A stretch of DNA of 64,000 nt, taken from the NCBI GenBank assembly GCA_030704615.1, contig CM060734.1, positions 36,456,001 through 36,520,000 on the forward strand, read 5' to 3'. Below, piece by piece: positions 237-27,252 of the stretch. The position numbers were made by a program, and so were the translations under genes. Positions within the stretch are counted from its first letter, which is position 1. Each line of letters opens with the position of its first letter. Source of the stretch: Takakia lepidozioides (taxonomy: Eukaryota > Plantae > Bryophyta). Below the pieces are notes generated by a model. It saw only the letters and a list, made by a program, of their open reading frames with translations, was not told where the DNA came from and did not search any database.

Positions 237-243
237 CTCCTCC

Positions 244-2729: not shown

Positions 2730-4400
2730 TACCTCGGTTGTCCCACCATTGATTGGGGTCAGAAAAGTATTCATTCCACAACTTCTCCTCGTCTCAGCTG
2801 TTACCTGTTTTTGGATACTTCCCTGTTGTCACATTGGCAGTACCATGTCAAAGTCGCTCCAAACTATCAAAGGCTCACTCAACCAGCTAACTTGCAGAAT
2901 TCAACATGAAAATTTAGGCCGATTCTGATAAGAGGGAAAAACAGGGTGAAATGTGTTGAAGAAGGTGCTTTCATTATCAGTACCTGAGTTTATCATTGTG
3001 CCGTTGCTGCTACGGCTTCTAGTTGACCAGTCACCATCTATCCATGCAGGTTTCTTGTAACTATTGATCCATCTGGTACATTTCCAGCTTTGGTGATGCA
3101 ACCATGCACCTCCGATGCCCTTTTCCAAGGCTGCCAGGCTTGCACACACACTGCAAACGCACACAAACATGATGTGGTCGAACTTCACCCCTTCCCCCAT
3201 CATTTGCTTTCAGGTCTCCAAAGCCCCATACAGCGCCCCTGCTCTGCACACCCTGCAAACATCAGATTCCACAACACCACATCTCATTCAGCCGTAGTGT
3301 TGAACACTCCCTTGGCATCCTCAATGCTACCATATTTGGCATACATGGCCACCAAAGCAGTGTTCAGGATGACATCTGGAACAATTGCAGATTTGATCAT
3401 GTCACCAGGGATCTCTTTGCCCTTTTCCAGGGCTGCCAGACACACTGCAAACACACACAAACCTTATATCGGCGGGCTTCACCCCTTCCCCCATCATTTG
3501 CTCATAGGAGGCTCTCAAGGGTCTACCCACTCTCGGCACCAGACTGAAATTTAAACTAAGGGCAGGAATCCTACCTTTGAATCGCAAACAGAAGCAGAGA
3601 GGAAAGGGAGAGTGCAATTGCACCCAACTCAACTTATCACACTAGTTCCTATGGTCAATTGCATCTGCTACACTCTGTAATTTGACAAGCATTCACTTTT
3701 TTGCCTCGGTTGTCCCACCAGTTACTGGGGTCAGAAAAGTATTCATCCCACAGCTTCTTCTCATATCTGTTACCTGTTTTTGGATACTTATGGACGACTC
3801 TGATGGCAGGGGAATTCAGGGTGAAATATGTTGAAGAATGTACCTTCATTAGCAGTGGGTCTTGTTCTATCAATTGTGCTGCTGCCATTGCTGTTTCCAG
3901 TTGACCATCTACCCACTCGTAGCCATTGTGCTATTGAAGAAGGTGCCCCCCCATCATTTGCTCATAGCTCTCCAAAACCTCCATCCCACGTCCCTGCCGT
4001 GCATACCCTGCAAACATCGCACTCCACGACACCACATCTCGTTCAGCCATAGTGTCAAACACTCCCTTTGAATCCTAGATGCACCCACATTTTGTAAACA
4101 TGTTCACCAGGGTATTGTTCATAATGACATTTGATACAATTCCAGCTCTGAAGATGACGCCATGGACCTCTTTCCCCTTTTCCAAAGCTGTCAGGGCAGT
4201 GTTCAGATTGACATTTGGCACAATTCCAGCTTTGATGATATCCCCATACACCTCTTGCCCTTCTCCAGGGCTACCAGGCTTGCACAAGCATTACAAATGC
4301 ACACAAACACGATGTGCTTCCCCCATCATTTGCTCATAGGTCTCCAAAGCCTCCATCCCACGTCCCTGCCGTGCATACCCTGGACCAAGCTGACTCTCCC
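2730..4400 (-). pseudogene. Captured, duplicated fragments of PLS-class PPR motifs plus an OSB-type WWDNR motif
   Basis: MMGEGVKFDHIMFVCVCSVCASLAALEKG and NVIMNNTLVNMFTKCG (PPR); KLWDEYFSDPSNWWDNRGKK and KLWNEYFSDPNQWWDNRGK; many frameshifts. Confidence 0.8.
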
Positions 4401-5530
4401 AAGAACCTTGTAAACATCAGCGAGGACTTAAGTGCGCAGCAGCGATAGGGCTTAGTGGGGCCTAGTGCTTGAGGGAAGAAAAAAACATCACATTGGTCCA
4501 TGAGAACCACCATGGTGCAGCTAAGCGAGCAGAGATTGAAACACGACCTGCTAAGACCAAGCTGACTCTTCCAAAAACCTTGTAAACATCAGGAAGAATA
4601 CCAAATCATGGTACTAACAGGAGCCAAAAGCCCACATTTGCAGGATGGACAAACTTCTTCACATCCTACATTAAGAAAAAGCCACACCTTGCGATTGCGA
4701 TTGTCCCACCATCATGAAGGATCGTAAAAAACTCATGCGAGTTTTGCTCCGTGCTGCAAATTCAGGGCCGAGTCTGATGAGAGGGCAAAATAGGCTGAAA
4801 TAGGTCGAAGAAGAAGGTGCCCTAACCACATTGTCGTCAACCTTGTGTTATGACCCATGGAGGATTTGACAGACCATGAACCCAAACGGACCTCTTGTGT
4901 GTGCTACTTGTGTCTGTAGTCAGGTAATGTCGGATTGTCCATGAGCACCACCACGGTGCAGCTGAGCGAGCAGAGATTGAAACGCGACCTGCTAAGATCA
5001 ACCTGCACGAGGACTTAGTGTGCACAACAATGATCGGGCTTAGTGGGGCTTAGTGCATGAGGAGGAAAAAAACAACACGAGGAGTTTGAACCCGCGACCC
5101 CGCATACGCAGGAAGAGCCCTTACCAGTACGCTACATGCACACATTTAAAATTCCCCCCCAAAAATATGTATATATTGTACATACGTGATGGGCAATTTT
5201 TTAAGTTTTTTAACCTTTTCACAAACCCTATAAGCAACTTTTTGTTTCTTATTTTTATTTTTAATAAATTTTAAAAGAAACCTCAGGCCCTTGAGGAGGG
5301 GGAAAAATTAACCCCCTTTCATTTATGGGCCATGAGACCTACAGGAGGATCAACGCCCAAACATACCGTCGCCACAAACAATCCCGCACATGGAGTAATG
5401 CAGCGGGTTTGAACCCTGAACCACCAAGGCGACACATTTTGCACTTATCAGCCGATGTGCTTTTTTTTAATCTTTTGCACTTTGATTTTTTTTTTTAAAT
5501 TCATTTTAGTGGTTATAAGTGAGCACATAG

Positions 5531-5884
5531 ATGTATTCCATGGAGATAAACAAAACTGTTCATCCGGTGTCTTCACGGTGGATGTATCCCATGGAGCGTT
5601 ATATGAAAGATCTTAAGGGATACGTTAGGAATTACGCAAAGCCAGAAGGGAGTACGGCTGCAGGGTATGTTCTAGATGAGGCCATGGGGTTCATGACTGA
5701 GTATATGCAATCATTTGATGCAACTCAACAGCAGACTTGGGATGCAAATGCAGAGGAAGGGGTTGAGGATGAGGTCTTCGAAGGTATTGGCAAAAAGTGG
5801 GACATAACTGGAGCTAGGAGAGATGCAGCACAAATTTTGTATGTGCTGAACGATACCAATGTCATGGCTCCTTGGGCGCAATGA
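5531..5884 (+). pseudogene. CACTA transposase (TnpD) C-terminal fragment, DUF4218-like
   Basis: RWMYPMERYMKDLKGYVRNYAKPEGS motif. Confidence 0.85.
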
Positions 5885-7120
5885 GTACTTCTTTTCATTG
5901 CACCTTATTCATATCAAGTTCAATTTCAATTCTGACTGTCACCAGTGTAATCAAACCACCCACGAAGTCACCAATGTCAGTGGTTCATCCTGATTATAAC
6001 CAATGTTGTAGTAACGGAATGTCTGAGTGAATGACTTGTTGGAAGAGCATGTTAATTTACAAGTCATTCTGCTCACTCCTCCAGTGGTTTGAAACAGTGG
6101 TTTTCAAAGTATCATTCATGCTAGGTATTTTTTGCTAAGTAATGCAATACTTCATTGCTAACATGTGTCATTCTTGTTGCCATTTTGTGACAAAAAGTAT
6201 GCAACAGAGAAGGCACAGTTCACAGCAGACAGAGAGGCATGTGGTGATGAGTGGCATGCCAATCGACATCTACCTTATCAGATCAGCCAATACCTAGGTC
6301 ATTAGATGGTCCCACGACTCTAAATAAAGAAGACCTGGCTATGTTGGCTACCATTCAAGCGGCATTTGTGCAACCAACCGCTATTCCAGTTGAGCAAAGT
6401 GATTCAGAGGGTGACGAATATGTTTCAGATTCAGAATAAAGTTTATTGTTGGAACCATTTGTTCAATAGCATCATCCCACAATGATCTGGCCACTTGTCT
6501 GTTTTTCAAAGTCTGTCACAGCTGCACAAACCACTTAAAGTTTTTCATGTATCACCCAAAAAGTGGTACCAATCACTGTTGTGTAGGCAACCACTCATGA
6601 GCAACCACTAGCATAGTGGTTCCAATTATTGCAGTATCTTTCACCACCCACTCTCCACCACTGTCAAAGTGGTACAAATCAATGAGGTGTCTTTAACCAC
6701 TCAAGATCAACGTGCATTGTCCCCGTCCACGTGGAAAATTATATTTATGAACTAAAATATATTTCCAAATAATAAATCACAAATAAAATTTGAATTATTA
6801 CACGTGGAGTAGGAAGTGGTTTCAACCACTTCCCATCACTGAGGTGTCTATAACCACTCACAATGTACCACTGCACTTGTCCACGTGGAATATTATATTA
6901 ATTAATTAAAATATATTAGCAAATAAATAATAATAAATAAAAACAAATTATTACACGTGTACTACTGAGTGGTTGAAACCACTTCCAACCACTGTCTGTG
7001 ATGCCACCATGGCATTTCATTGGGATTAACCACTGGCAAGTGGTTACTAGTGGTTTATAGAGTGGAAAAAGACAGTAGTGGTTAAAGGGCCAGTGGTTAT
7101 TCCACATTTTTCTTCTAGTG

Positions 7121-10100
7121 TGCGTTGCAATGTGCTTCGACTTACCATGGTACTTGGTAAATTTTGTCAGCGCAATGCAACTCTGATTGTCACAATCAAT
7201 GTTGAGAGGTCCGGTATGTTTGTAACCAATATTCTTCAGCAACCTCTTCAACCATATTGCTTCCTTAGCAGCTTCAGTGGCAGCCATGTACTCCGCTTCG
7301 GTGCTTGAGAGTGTTGTAGCCGTCTGCTTTTTGCTACGCCAAGAAATTATTCCACCATTGAAGGTGAAGCAATAGCCTGATGTGGACTTTCTAGTATCCA
7401 CTTCTCCTGCGTAATATGAGTCACAGTATCCTCGCAAGATCCGCATCATTGCTGCAAATAGCATTTGTACCAAAAGAAATTCCGAAATCAATGGCACCTT
7501 TGATGTATCTGAACACCCACTTAACTGCAGCCCAATGGGGATTATTTGGATTCTCCATAAATCAACTCAGAACACTGACAGCAAAAGTAACATCAGGTCT
7601 TGTACAAGTGGAAGCGTATATCAAGCTTCCAATTGCATTTCTGTATGGAATTTTTCTCATTTGCTCTTGTTCTTTTCTTGAAGAAGGATACATTTCCGTA
7701 GACAATTTGAGGTTTGCTTCCATGGGTGTTGAGACTGGCTTGCAGTCTTCCATCTGGAACTCTCTCAACACATGTTCCAGGTAGCGTTTCTGGTTCATAT
7801 GAATCAGCATTTTTCCTCAGTCACAAATGATGTGAATTCCAAGGCAATATCGCATTTCGCCAAAATCCACCATCTCAAATTCAGTTGCGAGCATGCTCTT
7901 TATATCCTTGAGATAGTCTAAGCGATTGCTAAACAAGATAGCATCATCCACATATAGTACTAAGATGACGAAGCGCTCTCATGCTCGCTTCATATAGACA
8001 TTGGAATCGACACTTCCTCTTTCAAATCCACGAGTCATTAGGTATCCATCCATGCGTTGGTACCATGCTCGGGAAGACTGTTTCAACCCATAAAGAGATC
8101 TTTTTGAGCTTGCAAACCTTGTTTTCAGCTCCCGCTATCACAAAGCCCTCAGGTTGCTGCATGTAAATCTCCTCTTTAAGGTCACCATTCAAAAATGCCG
8201 TTTTAACGTCCATTTGATGAATCTCTAGGTCATTTAACGCTGCCCATGCAAGTAAAGTCCTGATCGATGCCATCTTCAAAACTGGTGAAAACGTGTCAAA
8301 GTAATCCACTCATTCCATCTGTGAATATCCCTTAGCAGTCAACCTAGACTTGAGTCTGTCAATCGTCCCATCCTCCTTGTACTTTCTAGCAAAAACCCAC
8401 TTACAACCAATTGCTTTTCTTCTTTTTGGAAGATCAGTGAGTTCCCCACGTACCATTTTTCATGAGTGATTGATACTCCATTTGCATAGCATCCTCACAT
8501 CCATCGGCTTCATCGTTTTCCAATGCTTCCTTGACATTTTGAGATACAGCAATTGCTGCAAAACATTCAGGATAGCCTTGAACTTCAAGATTCTCTTTGA
8601 CTTTTAGTGAAGGCCTACGACTTCTTGTTTTGATGTTATCGTAACAGTTCAAGTTTTCCCTTGCTCATGTTGAAGGATATTGTTCATTATCGTTACCTCG
8701 TGTAAACTGCTCTAGGTCATCATTTGAATCAAGTTCACCGTCGGGTTCACCGTTTGTGTCTTGATCGATGTCCTGCAGATTCTCCTCAGTCGGTCCATAA
8801 TCTGTACGTTCATGAACACCCTCTGCAAGATTTTGAACTTTCAAGTCTCCTCGTGTGAGACAATCAACAAGGTTTACAAGAAACAAATCCCAGAGATCCC
8901 ATGAATCTCTTTTTATAGAATATTTTGTCGTCTGTTCTTCTATAGCATTGGACTCATCAAACACTACATCCCTGCTTAGGAAGGCCTTCTTTGTGCTAGG
9001 GTTATACATCTTGTAACCCTTAGACTCTTCAATGTAGCCAATGAAAATACACTTAATGCTCTTGGGTTCCAATTTGCTAATCCGCTTCTCATTTGGAATA
9101 TGAGCATAAGTTTTGCATCCAAAAATTCTGAAATGACTCACGTTAGGCTTCTTACCGCACCAGATCTCTTTAGGTGTCTTGGTCGGCGATGCTTTTGTGA
9201 TCACCCTATTTCGGATGTGCGCCGCGGTCATCACTGCTTCTGCCCACAATGCCTTATCCAACTTGTTGTCATGAATCATGCTATGAACACTCTCCATTAG
9301 GGTTCGATTCATCCGTTCAACAAGTCCGTTTTGGAAAGCATTGTATGGAACCGTAGTGAACCTCTGGATTCCATGTTGCCTGCAATACTCTTTGAATGCA
9401 GTAGAAGTGAACTCTCCACCATTATCACTCCTCAAGCTCTTGAGTTTGCAATCAGTTTGCATCTCAGCTAATTTGTGGAATGTTTTGAACGCCTCAAACA
9501 CTTCTGATTTTGCCTTCAAACAGTATTCAATCACTCTCCTCAAGAAGTCATCTGTGAAAGCTACGAAGTATCTCGCTCCTCCTAGACAATGGACTTTCAT
9601 AGGGTCCACCACATCTGCATGAACTAATTCGAGCACTCTGCTTCCAGTAGTCTTTGGAATTGGTGCTTTATGTTGCTTTCCTAGTAAGCACCCTTCACAT
9701 ATCTTCAAACTGGATTTTTTTTCAAGCTTAAAACCAGTTGCACCTTGTGCTTTATCTATGAGCAGCATGGTCTACAAATTCAGATGCCCTAGTCTTTTGT
9801 GCCAAACTCAACAGAATCTAAACCATGCTCACTTGACATAGATACCATTGCACAACAATCATCAAGTGCTGAAGTCAAGCAGTAAAGATCTCCAACTCGA
9901 GTTCCTTCAGCTACTAGATTCAGACTATCATCATAGATCTCACAACCATCTTTATTGAAAAATGGATATAGACCTGTATCAACAAGTTTACTTACTCCAA
10001 GTAAATTGTTCTCCAGACTTGGAACATGTAGTACTCCTTTTAGCTCCTTCGTGACTCCATTTGGAAGCTATGTGAGCACCGTCCCTTGACCTTGAATCTC

Positions 10101-11135
10101 GCTGAATGTATTGTTGGCAACTTTCACTCTCCTAGGAACTTCAAACTCTTTATAATCCACGAACCAATCTGATCTCGGGGTCATATGGTCTGTAGCTCCC
10201 GATTCCAAGAGCCATGATTCCAAAGTATTGATCCGCATCGTGTGTGCCGCATTAGTAGTAGCAACCATAAGAAGTATGGCATCCGTAGAAGTTGAGTCTA
10301 ACTTCGTCTCCGCTGAATTTGCTTGTGGACCAGACTTAACCTGCTCTACAATTTTCTTCCAGCAGTCTTTCTCGTCATGACCTCGTTTTTTGCAGTATCC
10401 ACAAATCTTCACCATTTTCTTCTCGGTGCTCCTACCATCTTTGCTTCTGGCATTATGGAGTTTTTTATTTGAACCACCAGAAAAAACTTTCTTGCCGCTA
10501 GCTTGGTGCTTGCAGTTGAACTTAGCTACCATTGTCGTGGTTTCTTCAACGTGCAGACCAAGTTGTCTTTGCCTAGTGTCTTCTTGAAGAAGGATTGTAA
10601 CGGACTCCTCCCACTTCATGTCCTTATTATTTCCAATGAATACCATCACGTTGTCATATGACACCGGTAAGCTATTCAAGAGGATAAGAAGACTAAAGCG
10701 TTCTGAAGTTGGACCGTCATCAGTTTCTCCTAACTGATCATTCAGATCCTTCAACTTGTTGATGTGCTCCATGAGATTGTCACCTTCTTGCATTCTTGTG
10801 TTGAGAAGATGTCTAAGCAATATCAATTGCTCATGCATCGATTTCTTCTCATATAATTCACCGAGTTTTTCCCAAGCCTCTGCAGTCGTCTTTGAAGTCC
10901 TAATGCGGCGAATGACACTATCTTGAAGATGCCAAACAATGACCGAATGGGCTTTGCCATCCTTTTCCTTGATCATCTTATCTGCACTCGACGATTCTGC
11001 TTCAGGTCGAATCTCCTTCCCGGACACTATTCCCCACAAGCCTCGATGCACTAGCAAGTGTTGCATCTTGTACTTCCAGAGAGAAAAATCTTCTCCACCA
11101 AATCGATCCATAAGACGTGGGACAGTCGTCTCCAT
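7121..11135 (-). pseudogene. Copia gag-pol polyprotein with stops and frameshifts
   Basis: Gag with CGYCKKRGHDEKDC knuckle, PR WLLESGATDHM, integrase LVHADV...LRSDNGGEF...ERMNRTL (8665-9768), RT HQMDVKTAFLNG and LYVDD, RNase H SSTEAEY. Confidence 0.95.
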
Positions 11136-11282
11136 CTTCCCAGATAGAACCGATCTACTTATACCACTTATCTATAACTAGTTTCCTATCCCACCATTAA
11201 GTCTTATCTAAGATCAAAACATCATAGAGAGAGTACTGATCACTATTTCTCCCCCCATCTATCTCACTAGTCTATCATCTAA

Positions 11283-11294
11283 GCTCTGATACCA
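11283..11294 (-). promoter_or_regulatory. Primer-binding site (initiator tRNA-Met)
   Basis: Minus strand TGGTATCAGAGC directly after the 5' LTR. Confidence 0.9.
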
Positions 11295-11563
11295 TGTTGG
11301 AAAACCATCGAGAAACACAGATCACTAGTACGAGATCATCAGATGTTGAGGAATGAAGAAGAAGATATGAAATGATTCTATTGATAGAAATATATACATG
11401 AGTCTCGATCCACTTCGGAAGGAAGTCTACTATGTTAATCTCCGCTGATGTCTCCGCTGATATCTCTAGATAGCTACCACCGCTACCACCGTCATGCAGT
11501 GATAATGTTGCACCGCTAAACTATTTATGTACAGTTGACTAGGAGGAAAGCTAATATCTAACA
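11295..11563 (-). repeat. Copia 5' LTR (269 bp, TG...CA)
   Basis: TGTTGG...CTAACA; matches 1-236. Confidence 0.95.
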
Positions 11564-12768: not shown

Positions 12769-13432
12769 TATCACATCCCAAATGGCTACTATTTTTCGTT
12801 TGTATTATGTTTTTTCTTTTTTCTTTTTTTGAAAGGGGATAAAGCCCCATCAATTATGTTTTTTCTTTTTCATTTTTTGGTTGAAGGCCATAAATTATTA
12901 TTAACAGACGAAGAAAACATAACCTCACGCTACATGCCATGAAGGCTGAGAAAATATTCACTGGCCATTGACTAGAGCTTCAGGGGAGGGTCTAATGGGG
13001 ACTATATAGAAATGATGAAGGAGTGTCCAAAAACGGGGAGGAGACAAAGAGACTATAGCAGAATCTATGGTGGAAGACTGATCAATTATTGCCTTGTTTC
13101 CTGTTAGAAGGCTCAAAAGATAATTGTACTTTGGATTTTCATTTCCTAAAGCTGTAACATCTGTAGTCATGCGCACTCGAAGAAGAAATAACGCGGACCT
13201 GCTTGAAAAGATCGTGGATCCGCCTCTGACAGTGGTTCAGCGGGCTGATGGGGATTTCAGCCCAGTTCAGTTGCTCAACTTGCAAGCGGATCCACTGGAT
13301 AAAATAAGATGAATAAAATGGAGTGACTGTTTACATGATTCAAACAAAAGTTATTTTTCATGTTAAAATTTAAATGTTAGTTTGTTTTTTGCCATACATG
13401 CATCATACTGAACAATACAAAAGTATACGACA

Positions 13433-13808
13433 TGTCATGGTTTTAGTCATGGTTAACTAGAATTACCTACTTCTAGTTAACTAGGATATTTTATATATTC
13501 ATATTTGTATTTTGTGTGTTGGGATTTCATTTGGTCTCACATGCCAAGTGAGGTGTCAAACCTCACTTGGGACATGGGGATGGGTTTTCCCCTTGTGAGC
13601 GTTGAGGAGGGCTCATCTTCTTGTAGTTGAGCCTCCATGAGCCTACATGAGCCTCTCCCACCTCCATAGCTCTAGATATTGAGAAGGAGTGTGGTGAGGG
13701 CTTTGTAGGGTGGATTCCTTTAGCAAAGGTGCATTTGGCTTGACTTAGTTTATGTGATTGAGTGGATTCATGAGTGGAGTGTTTCCCTTGTGTTCACTTT
13801 CATTATCA
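13433..13808 (+). repeat. Split direct repeat A1 (left terminus)
   Basis: Near-identical to 23359-23723 (about a dozen differences including a 10-bp indel). Confidence 0.95.
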
Positions 13809-15914
13809 CTACAAGAAGAATCATCAATTTTTATGTGGAGTTACAGATTTCACCATCCAGGAGTTTTGCTATAATCTGCCATTTTTGACGGTCAATGCTT
13901 CCAAATAATGTGAGTAGTTAGATGTAGTAGGTAGGTAAATACTGGTAAGGTTCATTCTGGTGGATGGACAGTCAGTGCCAGATATAGCCTCATCAATGAG
14001 GCTAGGTCCTATTTTGGGGATGGCCCACCAAAATGGCAGCCGACGCTTAGGGGTTAAGCATCTAAACATCTAATGGTTACGGCACAAAATCGTTGTATAC
14101 ATGGTCATGGATTCGAATTCACACAAAACTATGTTCGATTTCACCCATTATAGCTAACCTAGCTAGTATATAGTTTTTTTGTTTGATTATACAATGGAGC
14201 AGCCATTTTGATTTTTGCTAAATGTCAAAGTTCAATAATTTTTTGGTAGATGTTCCATCAACCTTCCAAATTTCATCAAAAATTAAGTAATCTACAAGAT
14301 GGCTTGGTAATTGAATTGAGGGTTATAACATCACCAATAACCAATCCAAAATGGACATTTAGTGGACATTAGGCTGCAAAGTGAGCACAATTTTGTAAAA
14401 TTCTAACAATCCATTTGTTGCAATCTTGTATTCGCTTGTGAGTGCGGAGTGTAAGGGTTAGTTTAGCACTTGTGTGTTGAAGAGCTTGGGAAGATAGCTC
14501 TTGTGTTGCAAGGTGTTGCATATATTGCAAAGAAAAATCCTTGTGGTGTTAGGGCTTTGAGAAATATTGCTTTGCCCTAAGGAGGTGGAGAGCTCAAAGA
14601 TGGAGCTCTTGTAGATCACAAGGGTTACAAGGAAAGGTACTTGTGGTGTTACACCAAGGTGTTGGGGAGCTCAAGAAAGAGCTTGTTTGCCACAAGATTT
14701 GCAAGGATTGCAAGAGGGAAGTCTTGTGTGTGTGGAAGCATGGATTCTAGGGATTGAGAATCGTTTCTATGCATTATGGAGTCAATGGTGTGTACCATGG
14801 CGTGTGGAGAGCAACTAAATGATTGTTAATACCCATTTCACTATCAATCTAGGGTTAAGCAAGCTCAAGTGTGGATGTTGTGGAAGAGAAGCCAAGGAGC
14901 TACATAGGCTTGGGCTTGAAGACAGCAAGGCAAACACTTGGAGAGCATTAGGAAGCTCAAGAGGTTTGAAGGGAAGCATATGGGTGAAAATTCTATCAAT
15001 GATGATGTGAAACCAAGCCTAGAGCATTGAAGAGCTTGAAGCACATGTGGGAGATCATTGGAGGTGGTCTTCATGAAGAAAAAAGATTGTGGCTCAAGGC
15101 ATGCATAGCAACTTCAACCATAGACTAGCATGTGACAAGACAAGGAAGGGGAATGTGAAGCTCATGTATTCATTCCCTTTTGGCTTAAGTTTTGTGGTGG
15201 ATGGTTGATCAAGCAAGTGATGCTTATATGGAGCATGCTTGGCTTCCAATTTCAAGCTTGAGGAGAGCTAGAAGGTAAAGGGAGCAAGTTGATCCCCTTG
15301 TGTATGAGGTGATGCATGTGTGGAGCATGCTTTTGGCTTGAGCTTTGCAATTTCAAGCTTGAGAGGAGTGGCTCTTGAGCTAGCAAGTGAATGGAGCTTG
15401 AATGACCAAGGCTTGAGAGGAGACAAGGCTTGGTGGCTTGCCAAAGGAGATATAAGCTTGATTTGGAGTTCCAATGAGAACTTGAGCTTGTTGTGTGACC
15501 AATGCATTGCTAGTTGAGTTGGAGACAAACTTGAGTAGCTTAAGGTGAAGAAGATCAAGGTAATTTGCCTTGGTACCCCATAGAATTCATGGATGCTTGA
15601 GGGGATTAAGCATAGAGCCCCAAGGAGCACAAACCCTAGCTTGGTGAGGCTAAACCTCAAAGAAATAGAGGGGGAAGTGGCTAAAGCCTAGAGGGAAATG
15701 GCTAAACCCTGGGGGGAAATGAACTACTCTATGAGGGGGAAATGGCTATTCCAAGGGAGAAATGGCTATTCCTAAGGGAAATACAAGGGAAATACGTATA
15801 GGCCCATGGGAATACTGGGGAAATATTATGGCATATTCTTGGGAATATTCCTATGGAATTTTGGGAACTTATTGGGAACTTGGGAACTCATTGGGAACAT
15901 GGTGATATAAGAAG

Positions 15915-16150
15915 AGTCCTTGGAGGACTGTTTGGGGACCTTGGAGGACCATTTGGAGGACCATTGGGAGTTCTTGGAGGACTGTTTGGAGGACCATTGG
16001 GAGTCCTTGGAGGACTGTTTGAAGGACCATTGGGAGTCCTTGGAGGACTGTTTGGGGTCCTTGGAAGACCATTGGAGGATCATTGGGAGTCCTTGGAGGA
16101 CCATTTAGAGGACCATTTGGAGTTCTTTGGAGGACTGTTTGGGGTCCTTG
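15915..16150 (+). repeat. Degenerate ~33-bp tandem repeat in the Gypsy 5' region
   Basis: Units like GGAGTCCTTGGAGGACTGTTTGGAGGACCATTG; explains the repetitive ORFs in several frames. Confidence 0.85.
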
Positions 16151-16952
16151 GAGGCCAATATTTGGCGAGCTTGAGGAGTCTTTGGCGACTTGTGTGAGAG
16201 ACTATTTAGGGTCCTCGAGGGCTAAGTTTTGGCAGGCTCTTGGGGCCTTGGTGTACTGTTTTGGAGTCCCATTGTGTAAGGATTGGGAGCCTTAGTAAGA
16301 TTGTTTGAGAAACATATTCTTGAGGGCTCCTGGAGAGTTATTTGAGAGACCCTTGAAAGGTAGTCTTGTCTATTGTTCAAGCAAGAGAGTGTGGAGATAG
16401 GGTAGTGGGATGAGGGCATGCTGGGATTAGGAATTGCTTTAGTCTCTCTTCCTTGTAGTCTTTCACCCTCTCTGTAGGCCAAAACCTTTCCGTAGGTGGA
16501 GGCAAGAGTCAGTCCGGGTTTGGGCTGGGGTGTCATTGCAGGAGCGACACTGTGGAGTGTTCTTGGTATGGGGGAGTTGTTGTCTTGATTTTCTTGTGTT
16601 TGGATCCCCTCCACACCTGCATGCTTGACTGTGCGTCAAGTTAGCTTTGTGTGGGCGTTTGTTTTCATAGGAGGTTGGTCCGGATTTGATCACCGGTCAA
16701 TCCTAGAGCGTGCTGTCGATGGTGAGGCTGGGGTGATGACCAGTCAGACCATCATTGTTTCTCTTATGGTAAGGCTGGGTTGATGACCAACAGACCATAG
16801 GAGTGCTTGCGGTGGATGCAGGTGCAGGTTTATGTTACGAACCTAGTAGTCTAAGCCATAAGCCGCAACAGGTTCTCTACCCGGTTACCTTGTGGAAAAG
16901 GGGATTAGAGACAGGTTTACAACATGTGTGGTTGTGAGTTTTCATCACGGAG

Positions 16953-17700
16953 GTGCCACCAGTTGCTGAGGAGAGTGCCGGTACGAGCACTAGCGATATT
17001 AGTGGGTATACAAGACGAGGTGTGCGGTTAGTTTCTACAAGCAGCAGTGGGACGTCAAATGGAACAGGAGCTGGGAAGTCCACCCAAACTCCTGCTGCAG
17101 CACCAACACCCGTGCCAGCCTTTAACCCAGTTGTGGAGTTCTTCGAGGAGTTAAGGAGAAACTATCAGGGGATAAGGACAGAGAAATTGCGGAGCTTGCA
17201 AGAGTTCCAACAAAGGCCTACCGAGAGTTTAAGGGAGGCTTACACTCGCATGAGGCGCTTAATAAACGTAACCCAAGGGGTTACAGAAGCTCAGGCAGTC
17301 CAATTCTGGTATGGGATATTGGACAAAGAGCTGAGGAGAAGGGTGCGAGATGCAACTCTCCTACACGTGGCCCAACCCACCTTAGCAAATGTGTTTTTGC
17401 TGGCAAAGCGGATAGAGCTCAATATGGTGGAGAAGCGAGTGGTCATGGTGGGGTTCGGTAAGGAGACACTACGAAGTGGGGCTCCTAGCCAACAACAACC
17501 ACTACCCCAACGTGCTCAAGGCAACAAAAAAGCTCAGGCGAAGCCCAGGGAAGGACAGAGAGGATCTCAATTGCAGAGGTCACTTCCTTCATTCCCAGGC
17601 CAACAACAGTCGAGAGTGACATGTTGGGATTGTGGAGAACCCCATGTTAAGAGAGATTCCCGGAAAGAGGCAAAGGGTCAGCACAGGCACAGCCTACACG
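16953..17700 (+). pseudogene. Gypsy gag, cut off at the inversion
   Basis: LQEFQQRPTESLREAYTRMRRL (gag major-homology-like motif) and a degenerate knuckle CWDCGEPH. Confidence 0.85.
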
Positions 17701-18829
17701 TCCCGGTTGGCAGGGAGGATGCACCATCCAATGGGAGTGTAGAAGTAGCCATCAATGCTTGCAATCTCTGTTGCTCAGCCATGCACAAGCCAATTATCCA
17801 TGTCAAGCAATTTAGATCCATTGCCTGACCCAACACCTGGCGTCGTGATGCCTCTGACAGAGTTGGCACAGATGTAGTGCCCGTGGCAAACTCCATTGCC
17901 CGCTCGCGCTCATCCGCATTGGTCTCCACCAATTGCTGTAGCACAATGTCCCAAATCAACCTAGGACCATTGTCTCGAAAAGCATGAGATGAGGGAAAGC
18001 TCATGAGCGTAGGCAAGGCTATACGTGGCTGCCCCACTCGATTGATCACTACTAGAGGTGGACGGTCATCATGTCGCGCTATCTGTGGTTGCCTCCCTTG
18101 GTCCAAAATGCCCTCAACCGTGAGATTGGGTGGCCGTTGAATAGAATCATATGCTCTCTTGAGCAGCTCTGGTGGTGCAAGATTGGCCCACCACAATCGA
18201 GGTCGATGCGCACGTGATCCCACTGCTGCTGCATCCAATAGCACCGCCGATCCAATCCAAGACCGCACCTGATGCACACTGGCCATTACCCTAGCCCGAG
18301 AATCCCCCATAAGAGGAACATTCTCCAACATATAGCCTAGAGGTTGCACTTGCCTCATCTGCAAGTCCCACAACACTTGCAACATCTCCCAAAACAAATG
18401 CGATCGTGCATCATGCAAGCCATTCCCATGACCTGCGAGAGAGTGTCCTTGGCAAGGCCATCCAGCTATCACCAAGTCAATGGCACCATACCGGTCCAAA
18501 TCATCCGCCCCCAGCAAGGTAATGTCTGCTGGCAAGGCCTTTTGATACCCTTGAATTGCTGAGAGAGGCAATAACTCAGGGTACCGGTATGTAAGCAAGG
18601 CGATGTGGCGCATAGAAATACGCCGAGCTATCTCATCCTTCTCCACATACAAGTACTTGCGTACTTTAATCCCAGCTTGCAACACTCCTGCAAGCCCGGT
18701 GCTCATGCCTCCAAACAGGTCTAGCAAACAAATCCCTGAGTCAGGTGGTTGCCAGGTAATGGGCACTGTATCCAAATGAGCTAACTGAGGAGGTCCAGGT
18801 GATGTCACTGAACTCCCCTCACTCACCAA
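17678..18829 (-). CDS. DNMT3-like C5-cytosine DNA methyltransferase domain (retrotransposon-borne, open 383-aa frame)
   Basis: Canonical motif order: I LLDLFGGMSTG, II YVEKD, IV IAGWPCQG, VI MLENV, VIII AHRPRLWWANL, IX ERERAM, X RRQVLGQAM. Confidence 0.9.
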   Translation of the reverse strand: MVSEGSSVTSPGPPQLAHLDTVPITWQPPDSGICLLDLFGGMSTGLAGVLQAGIKVRKYLYVEKDEIARRISMRHIALLTYRYPELLPLSAIQGYQKALPADITLLGADDLDRYGAIDLVIAGWPCQGHSLAGHGNGLHDARSHLFWEMLQVLWDLQMRQVQPLGYMLENVPLMGDSRARVMASVHQVRSWIGSAVLLDAAAVGSRAHRPRLWWANLAPPELLKRAYDSIQRPPNLTVEGILDQGRQPQIARHDDRPPLVVINRVGQPRIALPTLMSFPSSHAFRDNGPRLIWDIVLQQLVETNADERERAMEFATGTTSVPTLSEASRRQVLGQAMDLNCLTWIIGLCMAEQQRLQALMATSTLPLDGASSLPTGTCRLCLC

Positions 18830-18844
18830 TGGATAGGCCTCTTG

Positions 18845-19660
18845 TCATGCTTGGTGCACATACTCGCCTACTACTCGATGCAAATTCCCAACTGTACCCC
18901 ACAGGGGAATATGAACAGACACATAAGGAAGCAAATCAGCCTTGTATGCCAATTGTTTGTCCTCATCAGGTGGTGGCCTATCATCTGCATGGCTATTGCC
19001 CTCCAAGAGCTCACCACCCCAAGCCACCACCCCTGAGAATGCAGCCAATGTGGGCATCATGTTCCTATGATCCACCGCTACATTTCCAATAAACCGCACT
19101 GAGAGCAGTGCACGTCGACCATCCCCTGACTGCCATTCCGTCCTATAGGATGCCGTTTCCTCCCAAAAGTCCAAAGTAAAGCCCATTGGGTATAACACAG
19201 CCCTACCAACAAGCACATCATAAGACATCGCGTCCGTAACAATGGCTTTAGCTCTCATGACAGGGCCATCTGTAGGATGATCTGGTTGCAATCAAATGAA
19301 GAGCTTATGGCGTGTAATCCCTCGTGTCTTATCTGAACCGCCCAAAGATGTTTGAATTTGGAAAGGGCAAAGCTCCAAATCCGCCTCTGTAAGGCCCAAG
19401 CCTGCAATTGCTGCTCTCCCCAACATCAATGGCTATGCTCCCGAGTCCAACAAGATCCGCAGTGGCTTATACCTCCTCCCGGTTGGGCCACCCAACTGAA
19501 ACACACCATCCTGATTGTCCACCAGGACTACCCCAGGAGTCACCATACTACGCTCAATGGCTGGTCTAGCTGGCAACTCTTGCAACCTTGCAGGTGCCGC
19601 TTGCCATGGCGCAGCTGTGGCTGTCTTCACCCTTGAATCCAGGGCATCCATGCACTGCAC
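18845..19660 (-). pseudogene. Retroviral-type aspartic protease (in the inverted segment)
   Basis: RILLDSGA active site (~19436-19459) followed by the YDVLVG motif. Confidence 0.8.
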
Positions 19661-20164
19661 CTAATCCGTTATCCCCGCAGATAGTGCCGATGCATCACCA
19701 TTCTCACAGAGTGCAGCTACCAGTCTAAACACTGCAGCTGGCCGCATCCCCAGCATTGCAATTGTCGTGGCAGAAAATAATGGAGCTTGGCAAATTGTCG
19801 TAGCCGCCCCCAACAATGTACTGGCTGCACCTTGCTTTGCAACACCACCTACTGGCGTTTTCCGAGCCATACCAACTCTCCCCAATGACACTTGTGGCTC
19901 TGCCTCTTACACACTTGGGCGAGCGGGTGCCATCGATGGCGTAGTTGGCACTGTCTCAACCAATGTAAAGGATTGTGGAAGCCATGTCTGACGACTTGCT
20001 TCCCCCTTTTGTGGATCAAAATCCACATCCGTTCCTCTTGGCTCAGGAGCACGCGTTGTTGCTTGAGTGATAGCAGCTGCAGAGTCCACATACAATGATC
20101 CTGCAAGTGCGGCTCCACACATGAAGCCCATACCAATCTGGTCTTCCCTAGGCATAGACCATGG

Positions 20165-21790
20165 ACTGAGGATCAGTTGGAGGCCAAGGTAGCCAAGGTT
20201 TTTGAAGAGGTTGAGAATGTTTCTTGCTCAGAGGATGTTCTCAAGGTGGCTATGGCAGAGCAAGTGGAGACTACGCCATAGTCAGATTGGGCGGACAAGG
20301 CCCAAGAGGTTGCTATCTAGCAACCAAAGGATTCGTCTCCTACCTCCAAGCCTGGTGTATCCAAGGTTGCAGTCACTGAGGACAATTGGGAACCTGATGT
20401 TGGACCTACAGTCACCGGAGGAGAGAGACGGAGGATCCAGCGATTTCTAAGTGCTTATAGAAATTGCTTTGCCTTTGGTTTGAAGGATTTGGGGAGTTTG
20501 AAGGGTCAGGAGATTCGTATTGATTTGGCAAGTGATACGCCAATCTTTCGAAGGCCCTACCGGTATAGTGACATGGAGAGGTCATTGATCTAGTCACGGA
20601 CTATGGAGTTGTTCGAAGCTGGATTGGTGGAGTTGTCAGGCGGGGAGTATGCCTCGGCAACGATGATGCCAGCTAAGAAAGATATCTATGGCAATTGGAC
20701 AGAAAGAAAGGGGACTATCGTCTCGTGAACCATCAGACTAAGTCCGATAGATATGCCATGCCAACTCCAGAGGAGATCTTTGATGCCATTGGGCATGCAA
20801 AGGTGTTTACCACATTGGACTTGCGATCCGGTTACCACCAGTTGCCAATCAAAGAGGCTGACAAGCAAAAGACGGCATTCTGGGGGATTGACCAACATGG
20901 GAAGGACTGCTTGTACCAATGGCGGTTTTTACCGTTTGGGCTGAAGAATGCTCCTGCAGAGTTTTCAGAGGGTCATGGATAGGATTCTCGCGGGGCTAGA
21001 CTTCGTCCGGTGCTACATTGATGACATCATCGTCTATAGTGCTACGGTTGAGGAGCATGAGAGACACCTTCAGGTGGTGTTTGAGCGCTTGAGAGTGCAT
21101 GGGTTGAAATTGCACCCTGGGAAGTGCAAGTTCTTCCACAACCAGATTGAGTATCTGGGCCACATAATATACCCTGGAGGATTGGGTGTTCAAAAGACGA
21201 AGGTGCATTACACGCATTCCACGCCCCATAGATGTTAGCAGAATTCGTGCTTTCATGGGATTGACAAACTACTATCGATGGTTTGTCAAGGGATTTAGCA
21301 GCATTGCAAAGGCTCTTACCAAGTTGACCAAGGTGGGTCAGGAGTGGCAGTGGGAGGAGGAACAGGAGGAAGCATTTGAGGAACTCAAGGCTCGATTGAC
21401 TTCTACACTTATTCTGAGGTGACCTTTCCAGCTACATACGGATTTGAGTATACTGGGAATTGGAGCAGTGCTCACACATGTGGATGACGAGGGAAGAGAG
21501 TTCGTAGTGGCATATGCCAGCCGCTCGAACAATGATGCCGAGGCGAAGTATAGCTCATATGAAAGGGAGTGTCTAGCTGCGGTATGGGCAGTGGCACATT
21601 TTATATGCTACCTCTATGGCAACCTCTTCACCCTTATCACGGATCACCAACCATTGAAGTGGTTGATGGAGTCAGACAAGCTTACAGGAAAGCTTGCACG
21701 GTGGGCACTTATGCTTCAAGAGTACGACTTCTAGGTGGTGCATCGAGCCGGTATAGTCAATCGGGATGCAGATGGGTTGAGTCGTAATCC
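20165..21790 (+). pseudogene. Gypsy reverse transcriptase and RNase H, with stops and frameshifts
   Basis: LDLRSGYHQ, LPFGLKNAP, CYIDDII, IRAFMGLTNYYR, GIGAVL, ERECLAAVWAV, TDHQPL. Confidence 0.95.
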
Positions 21791-22109
21791 ATGCACGAGC
21801 GAGCATGATGATACTGGAGCTCGGTGGCATGGTGAAACGGATGAGGAGATGGTGCCAGGATGGCACACATCTGCCTTTTTGTACATCATAGCAATGGGAG
21901 CTCAAGCTGGTCCATCCCATAGCATTGGTCAAGTAGATGGTGTGCATGACGATCCGGAGATCAGTGAGGAGCTTGGTGGTGCTAAGGATGAGCATGAAGA
22001 TGTAGCAGTGTTGGCCTACCTTCGTACAGGAGAGACAGCAGTCAGTGTGACTACTAAGGAGAGAGATCGGATCCTACAACGAGCCAAGAGGTTCAAGTGG
22101 GAAGGGACT

Positions 22110-22781
22110 CACCTACTCCGGGTATGGGAGGATGGACGAGTGAGGATTGTGCCTCATCCAACACAACGAGCGCGATTGGTACGCCATGCCCATGAGGAGT
22201 TGGGACATTTTGGGGTGCGGCGCACTCATAGTTTGCTGCAAGGACAGTATTGGCGGGGCATGGAGAGAGTTGTTCAGACAGTCAAGAGAGGTTTGCGCAA
22301 GTACGGTTTGCAGAAGGGACACCTAGGAGATTGGGACCTTCAACTGCCTTGGCTAGCTATGGGCTATAGGTTCTGCAAACAAGCTTCACTTGCCTCATTC
22401 TCACCTTACTTTCTTCTCTTTGGCCGAGAGCCGGATTTGCTTGCATCTATTTGTAGGGAGGCTGCAATAGTTCTCAACCTTGATGATCCGGATGTGTGGA
22501 TACAAGTATGTGCCCAGCGGGCAGAGTTGTTCAAGAGAGTCATGCCTATGGCTTTTGAGAACCTTGCTATTGCCCAACACCGAGACACATTGAGGTACGC
22601 CACTATACGTGGAGGGGGATATCGGTCAAGTGTTCGGCGTTTCCACCCTGGGGACTATGTGTATCTGCAGCAGACAGCGCCTACGACCTTGGATGTCACA
22701 GCAGGACGTGTGATTCTAAGGGTCAGGGAGGTGTTGCCTTCAGGAGTGTTGATTCTGGAAGGTCAAGACGGCATGGTATAG
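22110..22781 (+). pseudogene. Gypsy integrase with an internal deletion of most of the catalytic core
   Basis: HAHEELGHFG (HHCC start) runs directly into ERVVQTVKRGL...WDLQLP...SPYFLLFGR; the CC pair and both catalytic Asp regions are absent. Confidence 0.85.
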
Positions 22782-22864
22782 AAGGACCATGTGCGCAATT
22801 GTGCGCCATGTCACCTTCCACATGTGGATGGGAGGATAGATCCCAACCTTGCAGTAGTACCTGC

Positions 22865-23014
22865 AGGGTTGCGTTGCATGCTATGAGGGCATGCTGGTGG
22901 CGCATGGTGTGTGACAAATGCTCAAGGGGGTGGCACATGGGATGCTTGACACCGCCACTTGAGGAGGTCTCTATCGGAGAATGGTTGTGTCTACGATGCC
23001 TTGGACAGAGGTAG
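22865..23014 (+). pseudogene. PHD finger at the pol C-terminus (N-terminal part damaged)
   Basis: VCDKCSRGWHMGCLTPPLEEVSIGEWLCLRC fits the C4HC3 PHD consensus. Confidence 0.85.
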
Positions 23015-23260
23015 TGGGCATGACAATGGTGAGGCGGACAAGTGATCCAAGGTCTAGCTAGTGAGGCTTCAATGCCATGGATACTCAACTGAAGATCATG
23101 GATTGCATGAAGGCGACTAACGATGGGGCTACGTTTGCACCCGACCTCTTGATCTATCGACTTCAGGTGTTGGGACTTGTGCAATTGAAGACCAAGCGAT
23201 GATCTTATTGAGATGGATACTTGTCAGCTATCCGGTGTTAAAGGGACCTAAGCACCGGCT

Positions 23261-23271
23261 AAGGGGGCGAT
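23261..23271 (+). promoter_or_regulatory. Polypurine-tract-like sequence before repeat B1
   Basis: AAGGGGGCGAT immediately followed by TGTGGC. Confidence 0.65.
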
Positions 23272-23356
23272 TGTGGCATAGCTTTCTAGGATTGTGTGCT
23301 TAGAATGTATGGTGGACAGTGATGTATGTTGTGGCACGATGCTTAGGTGCACGACA
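23272..23356 (+). repeat. Split direct repeat B1 (85 bp)
   Basis: Near-identical to 23725-23809. Confidence 0.95.
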
Positions 23357-23358
23357 GC

Positions 23359-23723
23359 TGTCATGGTTTTAGTCATGGTTAACTAGAATTACCTACTTCT
23401 AGTTAACTAGGATATTTTGGATATTCATATTTGTATTTTGTATGTTGGGACTTCATTTGGTCTCACATGCCAAGTGAGGTGTCAAACCTCACTTGGAACA
23501 TGGGGATGGGTTTCCCCTTGTGAGCGTTGAGGAGGGCTCATCTTCTTGTAGTTGAGCCTCCATGAGCCTCTCCCACCTCCATAGCTCTAGGTATTGAGAA
23601 GGAGTGTGATGAGGGCTTTGTAGGGTGGATTCCTTTAGCAAAGGTGCCCTTGGCTTGACTTAGTTTATGTGATTGAGTGGATTCATGAGTGAAGTGTTTC
23701 CCTTGTGTTCACTTTCATTATCA
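23359..23723 (+). repeat. Split direct repeat A2
   Basis: Copy of 13433-13808. Confidence 0.95.
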
Positions 23724-23724
23724 T

Positions 23725-23809
23725 TGTGGCATAGCTTTCTAGGATTGTGTGCTTACAATGTATGGTGGACAACGATGTATGTTGTGGCACGATGCTTAGG
23801 TGCACGACA
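23725..23809 (+). repeat. Split direct repeat B2 (right terminus)
   Basis: Copy of 23272-23356; ends CACGACA, followed by TSD GACA. Confidence 0.95.
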
Positions 23810-23980
23810 GACAAGCAAACCCCTTACCTAAACATGGAGAGGGAATCCATGTTAGGGTTATTGTTCGTGAAAACGATTGCTCAATTCCAAGTAGTCAGTT
23901 GCCGGTGATTGTAGTGTGAGATTGCCACAACTTCATATTGAAAAGAAATATATTGCACGAGGTCGGGAAAAAAAAAAGGT

Positions 23981-25201: not shown

Positions 25202-26667
25202 TCAGGCTGCCGCTGCAACATTTTCATCAGGGGGTTTGGACCCTTCCTCTCTCTTGGCTTTCTTGGCCTGATAATCTTTCACAGCTGCCTTGATTGCGTC
25301 TTCAGCAAGCATGCTGCAGTGCAGTTTCACCGGTGGGAGCGAGAGGTGCTTGGCAATGTCACTGGAATACACCACATGAATTCAGATAAAGAAAAATCTA
25401 ATGTCAACTAATTTTTTTGCAGCCTTGAACGCTTACAGAATTATGGTTCTCATCACTCGTGCATGAAAGTGGGTGCACCTTTTGGAGCTGCAGATCCTCT
25501 CAACTAGTGCAAGATTGGGTAAAATAGATATTAGAACTAGAAGTTGCAAGCTCTAGTTTTTCGAGTGTGAACTAAACTAAAACAATTGCAGATCGCCAGG
25601 AGCTTCTGGAGCATTCTCTTCTAGAAAAGTTAATTATATTCCCACCTAAAAGGTATACAAATCAACAAGTAAGAGGGAGCTGTGCCATAGGCTCAGATTT
25701 TCGCATTCCCTCATTCCCTTTGGAAGTTACTTTTATCTGGTATTTTTTCTTGTTGTTGAGGTTGTAGAGGAATTCCAATGGGAAAAAATTATATATCCTA
25801 TGATGGCAACACATGAAACTATCCGAAAGCTCCTTATGAGAGAACTTAGAAAGTTTGAGACAATCCACCCCTCCAGTCTGGGAACTATTTCTCAATCCTG
25901 GCATATATCATTCATGATCAACAAATCAAAGGGCTTGTCAAAATGGTGTGCAATCAAAGTTGTGACCAACTATGGGTAGTGTTGCAATGTCCAGAACCTT
26001 GTTCCAGCATGAAATCCACCTTTGGGAATGTAAGGTTCGCCTTACCTATTCTTTATCGTTAATACTTCTTCCATTTGCCTCCCCTTTATCCACTCGGTCG
26101 CTGCACGGAATATGAGGTAATTTACTAAGCTGATCATGAGTGCATAGGAGCAAATAATTACATGATCTATCAGGGAAGCACAATTCTTTGAACATCAAGA
26201 TTGTTACACAACTCACACCACACAGTAAATATCTAGAATGTTGTGTCTCTTTAATTTACCTGGCCAAACTACCACTATACATTTGTGTCTTAGGCCGTGA
26301 ATGAGTGATGGGGAAGCTATGAACATGACAGGTGTTTGCCTGTTGGTAAGATGTTTGTGTAGTTACCAACAGAGGATGAAGCAATGGCAGACCCGCACCC
26401 AAAGGTTTTGAAGCAGGAATCTACTATCGTTCCAGTAGCTTCATCCACCTTGATCTGCACCTTCATTACATCCCCACAAGCTGGAGCTCCAACCAACCCT
26501 GTCCCCACGTTCGGATCATCCTTATCAAAGGATCCAACATTGCGAGGATTGTTGAAGTGCTCCACCACCTTTTCGTGATACATTTTTGGCGCCAATGAAA
26601 CACTCCCTTTCTGAAGAGAAACAGTAGTCACCGCTCTTGTCATCCCTCTTCCAAAGAGACTCAACAT
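25202..26667 (-). CDS. ISU1: Mitochondrial Fe-S cluster scaffold IscU/ISU, 3 exons (26667-26367, 26100-26046, 25361-25202), 171 aa
   Basis: YHEKVVEHFNNPRNVGS, GAPACGDVM, FKTFGCGSAIASSS, LPPVKLHCSMLAEDAI; GT-AG introns keep the frame. Confidence 0.95.
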
Positions 26668-27252
26668 CGTTTTTAAAACGCATGGATGCTTGATAAAAAC
26701 GACTTGCGTTGATCAGGACAACCCCCCTTGAAGTACAATCGAACGAGGGAAAGATAACCACTTGGATCTGAGCTTTCCAAGAAAATGTCTAAGCATCTTG
26801 AAAATGGAACCAGTTCGTTGGACAAAATTCCTCAAATACACTCATACACAACCCATCAAGGTGACCCGACGCTCATCTGGACGCAATCAATCTACGACAA
26901 GAATCCCCCTAACACTGAAGATATTTTCTTAAAAAAGGGAGAGAATTTGGAGGTCACAAATTCATATGCTCTTGAAGCTGCAACCTCTTGATAAAATTGA
27001 ACCAACTTCTATCATGAAACTTCAAATTAGAAGTTCCAAAACAAATTAAAGAAAGCTAAGAAACCAAATTTAAGATCCCACTACAACCCCAAAATCCTAA
27101 AGAAACTAACGCAATCAAATGACCTCAATTCCACACTCTACATAGGTTTGGTGTGTGATTTCTACTAGAGAAGAAAAGATTAAATCCATGACTACCACCC
27201 TATCTGATGTCGGTTGAAGCCATCAACGGATGTGTTGTTTCAAATTTGAACC

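Follow-up and report, generated by a model that had tools for sequence, protein, structure and literature searches.

Does a land-plant retrotransposon carry a cytosine methyltransferase of its own and, if so, is the enzyme a chance passenger of one copy or a lasting part of the element? The question is raised by a stretch of 64,000 nucleotides from the moss Takakia lepidozioides (GenBank assembly GCA_030704615.1, contig CM060734.1, positions 36,456,001 to 36,520,000 of the forward strand; the window), in which an open frame resembling DNMT3-type C5 cytosine methyltransferases (DNMT) lies within a Ty3/Gypsy element. The reading favored here, at a probability of roughly 0.6, is that the locus holds a defunct copy, with an inversion in its interior, from a high-copy Ty3/Gypsy family of the moss. 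The family has the DNMT as fixed cargo, and it probably primes its own reverse transcription, integrates through an internal palindrome of end-joined cDNA and methylates its own new DNA.

The frame comprises 388 amino acids (aa) between stops (18844-17678, minus strand), or 383 counted from 18829. The original prediction of an open 383-aa frame with canonical C5-methyltransferase motifs was borne out on the minus strand by a match to the Pfam DNA_methylase profile (E 1.8e-11). The motifs follow the canonical order DLFGG (18721), AGWPCQ (18466), ENV (18325), AHRPRLWWANL (18211), ERERAMEF (17911) and LGQAMDLN (17833). Motifs that we take to be numbers I, II, IV (PC), VI (ENV), VIII, IX and X are present, and there is no DRM-type permutation. 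As also predicted, it has no introns and continues the reading frame of an aspartic protease upstream of it (DSG at 19447).

Among sequences of solved structures, DNMT3A, 3C and 3B gave the leading matches (E 2.5e-12 to 3e-7), whereas HaeIII, DRM2 and HhaI matched far more weakly (E 2e-4 or weaker), in agreement with the proposed likeness to DNMT3. An AlphaFold model built from a 76-sequence alignment has a mean pLDDT of 96. Its top Foldseek match is DNMT3A (E 2.4e-19, TM 0.69/0.83, 22% identity), and among the matches listed every top one was DNMT3A, B or C. In both sequence and fold, DNMT3 is thus a closer relative of the domain than are DRM, DNMT2 and the bacterial methyltransferases. Host DNMT3, represented by the animal DNMT3A/B structures, has the same fold and motif order; the element enzyme differs from it in being about 21% identical to DNMT3A, in lacking PWWP and ADD domains and introns, and in being part of a polyprotein. 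The moss host DNMT3 is that of Yaari et al. (2019), as cited in a passage of PMC10952607.

Relatives of the DNMT proved to be numerous. When proteins of near-equal length were searched, 157 of the 7996 scored candidates matched at E <= 1e-10 (120 of them listed); among longer proteins the figure was 54 of 7991. The named matches listed are from Marchantia polymorpha, M. paleacea, Calypogeia fissa, Riccia sorocarpa and three Sphagnum species, with one bacterial-bin label, and several lie on chromosome-scale contigs. The closest relatives (Marchantia, Calypogeia, Riccia and Sphagnum, among the matches listed) reach 72% identity. Metagenome loci L001-L061 and L075 were analyzed out of 68, some being the same insertion in several assemblies (L036/L037, L031/L032 and L040/L041). 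In 37 of the 41 loci of at least 4 kb, DNMT is followed by reverse transcriptase (RT) on the same strand; in the remaining four it adjoins gag/protease (PR) or RNase H (RH)/integrase (IN). The check proposed in the original prediction, that other copies should link the DNMT to pol, therefore gave a positive answer in many copies and species: DNMT is neither confined to this copy nor detached from pol in its relatives.

A profile search of 1.84 billion representatives yielded 560 proteins at E <= 1e-30. DNMT is found among retroelement domains in 128 of the 129 proteins of at least 900 aa and stands alone in one; it follows protease or precedes RT in 37 of them, and follows RT/RNase H or precedes integrase in 91. 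Catalytic motifs are retained in most of 228 near-full domains (G[WF]xC in 205, EN in 213 and HRxR in 212). A tree built from 103 of the 214 domains and rooted at its midpoint sets the two layouts apart; it groups the Takakia copy with Marchantia and Calypogeia in a clade of 19 tips (support 1.0). For 67 elements, the DNMT tree matches that of RT-RH (Mantel r 0.64, 0/2000 permutations; 12 of 15 strong splits in common), which points to long co-inheritance with at least one domain move. The ratio of nonsynonymous to synonymous substitution rates (dN/dS) of the DNMT is 0.12 for L033-L026, 0.08 for L033-L075 and 0.075-0.15 for this copy against 20 loci, dS being saturated in the last two comparisons. 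By this measure, the DNMT is under purifying selection between lineages.

In sequencing run X1, 40,476 contigs fall on the element at 80% likeness. Their summed depth is about 120,000-130,000 over DNMT and 290,000-510,000 over pol, and that of unique contigs is 60-80. These depths mean only that the family is very abundant; they give no copy number, and the lower value over DNMT is no sign of copies without it. Run X8, guessed to be RNA, held scattered diverged contigs only and has no bearing on expression either way. The comparisons above support a DNMT that is carried as fixed cargo throughout a land-plant family of Gypsy type, and not a one-off capture.

Some observations concern the annotation and reach of the family. 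The Marchantia gene models Mp_4g09160, Mp_8g17980, Mp_6g11220, Mp_2g26090 and Mp_7g09570 (P0123, P0124, P0127, P0136 and P0108, respectively) are pieces of it; they are partly labelled as DNA methyltransferase or PHD protein and may inflate counts of host DNMTs. The contig that contains the whole element L075 bears the title of a cyanobacterial bin, and the close DNMT P0021 is labelled Obscuribacterales; both are likely to be plant or algal DNA that was binned as bacterial. Little speaks for an origin in bacteria or phages, which is not supported: six viral loci and four of five genome loci gave weak matches (E 1e-8 or weaker), and the fifth was L075. A larger radiation, L052 and the 91 long proteins, has DNMT between RNase H and integrase; L052 has the same CA-GC-TG junction and a G-rich polypurine tract (PPT).

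The Takakia element occupies 13433-23809, starts with TG, ends with CA and is flanked by a 4-bp target-site duplication (TSD), GACA. An empty site, joined from 13412 to 23821, was detected in three of four sequencing runs (X1, X2 and X5); because the empty and filled sites have similar depth, the former may be a duplicate region. The left flank (13427-13432) reads ACGACA, identical to the six right-end letters of the element. No such match was seen at other TSDs, and it may be due to chance.

Single open reading frames (ORFs) of the relatives P0123, P0127, P0155 and P0126 align to this copy in three parts: gag and the part from RT onward match the plus strand, and protease-DNMT between them matches the minus strand. 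Because single ORFs map here as plus/minus/plus, the protease-DNMT block (~17690-~20170) is inverted. The left breakpoint is at about 17681-17699, and no microhomology longer than 7 nt was found at the breakpoints, which are placed approximately. An opposite-strand DNMT as the normal layout of the family was rejected, no relative having the inverted block as its main order. Inverted internal pieces also occur in copies L043, L048, L055 and L059, and such inversions may be recurrent in the family. Five stops lie upstream of DNMT in its frame, one of them just past the protease DSG, and pol has seven stops together with frameshifts. At the integrase deletion (22253/22263), sister-copy contigs continue into other sequence, and each DNA run has 5-38 contigs with loose ends there. 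This copy is dead and cannot express its DNMT. The predicted TSD-bounded Gypsy element was thus right as to its TSD, to which the empty site can be added, and has to be amended on its interior: protease and DNMT are inverted, the copy is defunct, and split repeats take the place of a pair of long terminal repeats (LTRs). The self-primer and the att-like palindrome described below are further additions to it.

Two other histories could be imagined for a frame open within such a wreck. Had the mRNA of a spliced host DNMT3 been captured once by this copy, the frame would be intronless, as it is, and the block, like other foreign inserts, might lie in the orientation opposite to that of gag and pol, as it does. 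The block nevertheless includes the protease and is colinear with the single ORFs of relatives, its DNMT belongs to the well-supported retroelement clade, and very many sister-copy contigs cover it. With many relatives, colinear ORFs and linkage to pol, one-off capture is refuted. The inversion might instead have freed a domesticated, separately expressed DNMT that selection keeps open, and 388 open codons do compare with 12 stops in ~1500 aligned codons elsewhere in the element. An open frame of that length is slightly out of the ordinary, with a rough chance of 0.05 estimated post hoc. However, the earliest ATG falls within motif I and none precedes it, the domain is also stop-free in 3 of 20 decayed relatives, gag is likewise open and an empty site exists; domestication is very improbable.

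The ends of the element depart from those of ordinary Gypsy elements. TG...CA termini, a PPT, a primer site and a TSD within the 4-6 bp of Gypsy elements are present, and two whole direct LTRs at the ends are not. The order is A1, coding region, PPT, B1, 'gc', A2 and B2, that is, A-coding-B-A-B, where A and B are repeats of unequal length. It was found in this copy and L037, and its 3' part in L019, L020 and L054. Heterogeneous contigs leave the element exactly at the start of A (26, 23 and 25 contigs in runs X1, X3 and X4) and exactly at the end of B (27, 20 and 33 in the same runs). In five elements with both ends, the 4-bp TSDs are exact in this copy, L037, L021 and L031 and have one mismatch in L027.

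The PPT and primer site set the ends of retroelement cDNA. Since the PPT abuts B (in 5/5 elements examined) and the primer site abuts A, the LTR made by RT, and hence the true LTR, is likely to be B-gc-A. The primer site is complementary to a stretch within A1, and this self-primer complement was present in five of six elements tested, in four different sequences, as covariation across four families; it has other letters in the L037/L034 family, L075 and L033. The chance of an exact 11-mer is 0.0003 or less, and the primer site is paired in predicted folds. A CACTA insertion directly after A1 was rejected as a candidate, the same letters following A1 in other families and forming the primer site.

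The palindrome at the B1/A2 junction, GACA-GC-TGTC, is kept with at most one change in L003, L019, L020, L037, L054, L033, L075 and L052, the last despite its other domain order and distance. The A2/B2 join is nearly precise, CA-N(1-2)-TG, in this copy, L019, L020, L037 and L054, and L031/L032 retain primer-site letters at it. We infer that B2 behind A2 marks a head-to-tail join of cDNA termini. Eight loci have PPT-B; five continue to A2 and three end in flank, and L021 is a whole A-coding-B copy with a TSD. Because inserted copies begin at A, end at B and have a conserved CA-GC-TG palindrome, integration quite probably uses this internal site. The chances that a free covalent circle is the intermediate are about even.

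In intact relatives, gag-PR-DNMT is followed by a conserved TAG, beyond which RT-RH-IN-PHD continues the frame. A single TAG divides two long same-frame ORFs in L033 and L075 (1369 aa and 1047 aa in L033). The stop site in 39 rows reads TAG-CAR in 27 and TAA-CAA in 10, with one other stop and one row without a stop. The conserved stop behind DNMT explains 22 database proteins that end just past it. The TAG is likely to be leaky and read through at a low rate; CAR-YYA is presumably the readthrough context of tobamoviruses. The expectation of PR-DNMT-RT in one frame thus proved correct as to frame and, given the conserved stop after DNMT, holds only through this likely readthrough. The Ty3/Gypsy order gag-PR-RT-RH-IN with an H2C2/rve integrase was found in relatives and, save for the inversion and the deletion, in this copy.

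Assembled into a life cycle, these features suggest that DNMT would be made at Gag-like levels and pol by readthrough, with the protease releasing DNMT within the particle. An RNA running from mid-A1 to A2 would be self-primed as in Tf1, and the linear cDNA copied from it would be of the ordinary kind, with B-gc-A as the LTR at both ends. The cDNA ends would then be joined head to tail, giving the A2/B2 junction, before the DDE integrase cuts the internal CA-GC-TG palindromes to leave A-coding-B-A-B. Packaged DNMT would methylate cytosines in this cDNA, either ahead of insertion or during it, and the new copy would arrive with marks like those of host repeats. For DIRS elements, such methylation of cDNA within the particle was proposed by de Mendoza et al. 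(PMC5890265). For the present family it is favored by conserved motifs, a complete fold and the place beside Gag, and may be given an even chance.

Several observations weigh against this scheme. In the yeast assay described in PMC5890265, de novo CG methylation was obtained for SymbioDIRS-Dnmt3 of a dinoflagellate only; KnitGypsy-Dnmt3 gave no methylation, a result that its authors call inconclusive. The original statement that known elements perform de novo CG methylation accordingly holds for the dinoflagellate enzyme only. At 0.40-0.57, the observed-to-expected CpG ratio of the element does not fall below that of the neighboring Copia element or host exons, so there is no signature of its own methylation. 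Within the family, dN/dS among the 20 decayed loci is only as low as 0.33 (median 0.49). The self-primer complement was looked for in L052 and not found, and it is clean (at most one mismatch) in only 8 of 12 A1 copies; full CAR-YYA context follows only 6 of 39 stops, including that at 20318 in this copy. A-coding-B forms (L005, L015 and L021, and one X4 contig record) fit cutting at the palindromes and equally well recombination between B1 and B2. A symmetric 2-LTR circle should also yield the permuted form A-B-gc-A-coding-B, and none of 12 left ends is preceded by B. Neither circle nor cDNA was observed, and a terminal overlap of L075 can be an assembly collapse.

The missing permuted form would be accounted for by a linear route, in which RT jumps from the right cDNA end to the left end or integrase joins the ends, with resolution at the first and last palindromes and no free circle. 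The near-precise A2/B2 join would also follow from it. However, such a route still requires cutting of the internal palindrome, and the ragged join of L031/L032 with its primer-site letters resembles host end-joining; we regard it as somewhat unlikely. For the enzyme itself, retention for another role would fit the inactivity of the Klebsormidium protein in yeast and a CpG signature not beyond background. Candidate roles are action in trans on host chromatin or older copies, DNA or RNA binding in the particle, and shielding of the palindromic attachment (att) site. The two polyprotein positions (37 versus 91 of 129) further suggest that dose relative to RT may not matter. Set against this are the catalytic Cys, ENV and HRxR retained in ~90% of the 228 domains, the complete DNMT3 fold of the predicted model and a position next to Gag, where cDNA is made. 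We regard another role as rather unlikely. More broadly, and tentatively, at somewhat less than even odds, the family may represent an old and widespread Ty3/Gypsy branch of bryophytes, and probably green algae. Such a branch would have shifted its integrase attachment site into the LTR and be obliged to join its cDNA ends, with the joined form inserted by a DDE integrase of retroviral type, and would co-package a DNMT3, produced at Gag level, that pre-methylates the cDNA. If so, it would be a natural LTR retroelement with a 2-LTR-circle-like intermediate as its normal life cycle, and an element-borne de novo methylase would be active in land-plant genomes.

Table 1. Features of the Takakia element by position in the window
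Feature	Position	Strand	Remark
Left target-site duplication GACA	13429..13432	.	Empty site joined 13412->23821 in X1, X2, X5
Repeat A1 (TG...CA, 376 bp), left element end	13433..13808	+	Left ends of sister copies fall at A start
Predicted transcript start/self-primer inside A1	13616-13626	+	A1 positions 184-194
11-nt primer-binding site	13809..13819	+	Exact complement of A1 positions 184-194; putative Tf1-type self-priming
~615-bp insertion, skipped by sister-copy contigs	13820..14434	.	Joints 13817/13819->14434
12/21/33-bp tandem repeats, long 5' leader	15911..16183	+	
gag with degenerate zinc knuckle, truncated by left inversion breakpoint	16938..17690	+	PF03732 E 9.9e-6
DNMT3-like C5 cytosine methyltransferase frame	17678..18844	-	Domain ~18742-17786; within inverted block
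Aspartic protease (DSG 19447), broken by stops, within inverted block	19127..19483	-	Asp_protease_2 in relatives
Conserved in-frame TAG-CAA-CCA, ORF1/ORF2 boundary; likely readthrough site	20318..20326	+	
Reverse transcriptase-RNase H region, frameshifted and interrupted by stops	20582..21731	+	
Integrase zinc-binding and C-terminal parts; catalytic core deleted at 22253/22263	22152..22808	+	
PHD finger, end of pol	22904..23008	+	PF00628 E 6.3e-6
Polypurine tract immediately 5' of B1	23260..23271	+	
Repeat B1 (TG...CA, 85 bp)	23272..23356	+	
Palindromic B1/A2 junction GACA-GC-TGTC, right end joined to left end, att-like	23353..23362	.	
Repeat A2	23359..23723	+	Versus A1: 10 substitutions, 11 gap columns
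Repeat B2, right element end	23725..23809	+	Versus B1: 3 substitutions; right ends of sister copies here
Right target-site duplication GACA	23810..23813	.	

The rest of the window holds other mobile elements and host genes. A separate Ty1/Copia-type element (2-11563, minus strand) has 235-bp LTRs that are 94% alike, with gag, integrase and RT frames named by eye. A hAT-like transposase remnant, also named by eye, lies at 35902-38300 on the plus strand, and a second, unrelated Gypsy RNase H remnant at 43968-44198 on the minus strand. The host genes are an ISU1-like exon (26317-26712, minus) and a tandem Bet v1/MLP-like gene (46200-46694, plus), both named by eye, and an IQ-domain gene (49942-52324, minus). 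The neighboring IQD exon matches Ceratodon and Physcomitrium at 70-72% identity, Sphagnum at 67% and vascular plants at no more than 44% (near-full-length matches), which marks the host as a moss.

A literature search that left subscription journals and Repbase outside its scope found no embryophyte report of DNMT-bearing Gypsy elements and no Gypsy element integrating via an internal LTR site. Passages of bioRxiv 10.64898/2026.05.21.726589 and PMC12344493 say 'streptophytes', citing de Mendoza et al., and their trees could hold land-plant sequences. The nearest known system is KnitGypsy-Dnmt3 of the alga Klebsormidium nitens (de Mendoza et al. 2018), for which the relevant passages of PMC5890265 describe DIRS-like repeats and no land-plant members. 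According to those passages, it likewise combines Gypsy domains, an intronless, non-rearranged Dnmt3-like polyprotein domain under purifying selection and the A-coding-B-A-B order. By description the present family works like it, and three features of the kind were found. It differs in occurring in moss, liverworts and Sphagnum at very high abundance. By the text description, the KnitGypsy DNMT lies simply within Pol, whereas here DNMT ends ORF1 before the conserved stop. The PHD finger, self-primer, 4-bp TSD and att-like junction of the present family are absent from the passages on KnitGypsy-Dnmt3.

The range of DNMT3-bearing Gypsy elements is thereby extended from one alga to mosses and liverworts, the model Marchantia included. 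What a retrotransposon does with a methylase, a question posed in 2018, becomes testable in a genetic system (Mp_4g09160, Mp_8g17980 and Mp_6g11220). The anatomy would also account for the DIRS-like repeats of KnitGypsy, so far without explanation, and it leads one to expect a DDE integrase that acts on the internal palindrome of end-joined cDNA. Tools that seek two whole LTRs are likely to miss or mis-bound the family, and its share of bryophyte genomes may be undercounted.

Tf1 uses an 11-nt primer, which is retained. Elements of the Tf1/sushi-Tcn1 type likewise lack a tRNA site, have a self-pairing site right after the repeat and follow the Ty3/Gypsy domain order; for the present family the likeness is drawn from sequence and predicted fold. 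Self-priming is described for the Tf1/sushi group and plant Tcn1 chromoviruses in the passages concerned of PMC6317226. Tf1-type elements differ in integrating at the cDNA termini, with two whole LTRs and chromodomains; the present family has a PHD finger and DNMT. No chromodomain was found after the integrase in this copy or in 29 relatives scanned, PHD standing in its place.

PAT and Ngaro are tyrosine-recombinase retrotransposons with split direct repeats. DIRS, PAT and Ngaro use that recombinase, whereas the present family has an H2C2/rve DDE integrase and 4-bp TSDs. Domain scans of this copy and its relatives gave no match to a tyrosine recombinase family; rve and H2C2 were present. SymbioDIRS-Dnmt3, as presented in part of PMC5890265, likewise has A-coding-B-A-B, an internal end-to-end junction copy and a Dnmt3.

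For the proposed integration step, the closest parallels are foamy virus and the IS3 family, where a DDE enzyme likewise acts on abutted ends with a short spacer in double-stranded DNA. In the circle junctions of the IS3 family, a DDE enzyme acts on abutted ends with a short spacer. Foamy virus integrase cleaves the palindromic 2-LTR junction, as reported in part of PMC1180852. In these systems the junction consists of joined termini, whereas the site of the present family lies inside the LTR and is inherited, and the permuted form would belong to the normal life cycle; the predicted mode of integration bears on the old dispute over 2-LTR circles as integration substrates.

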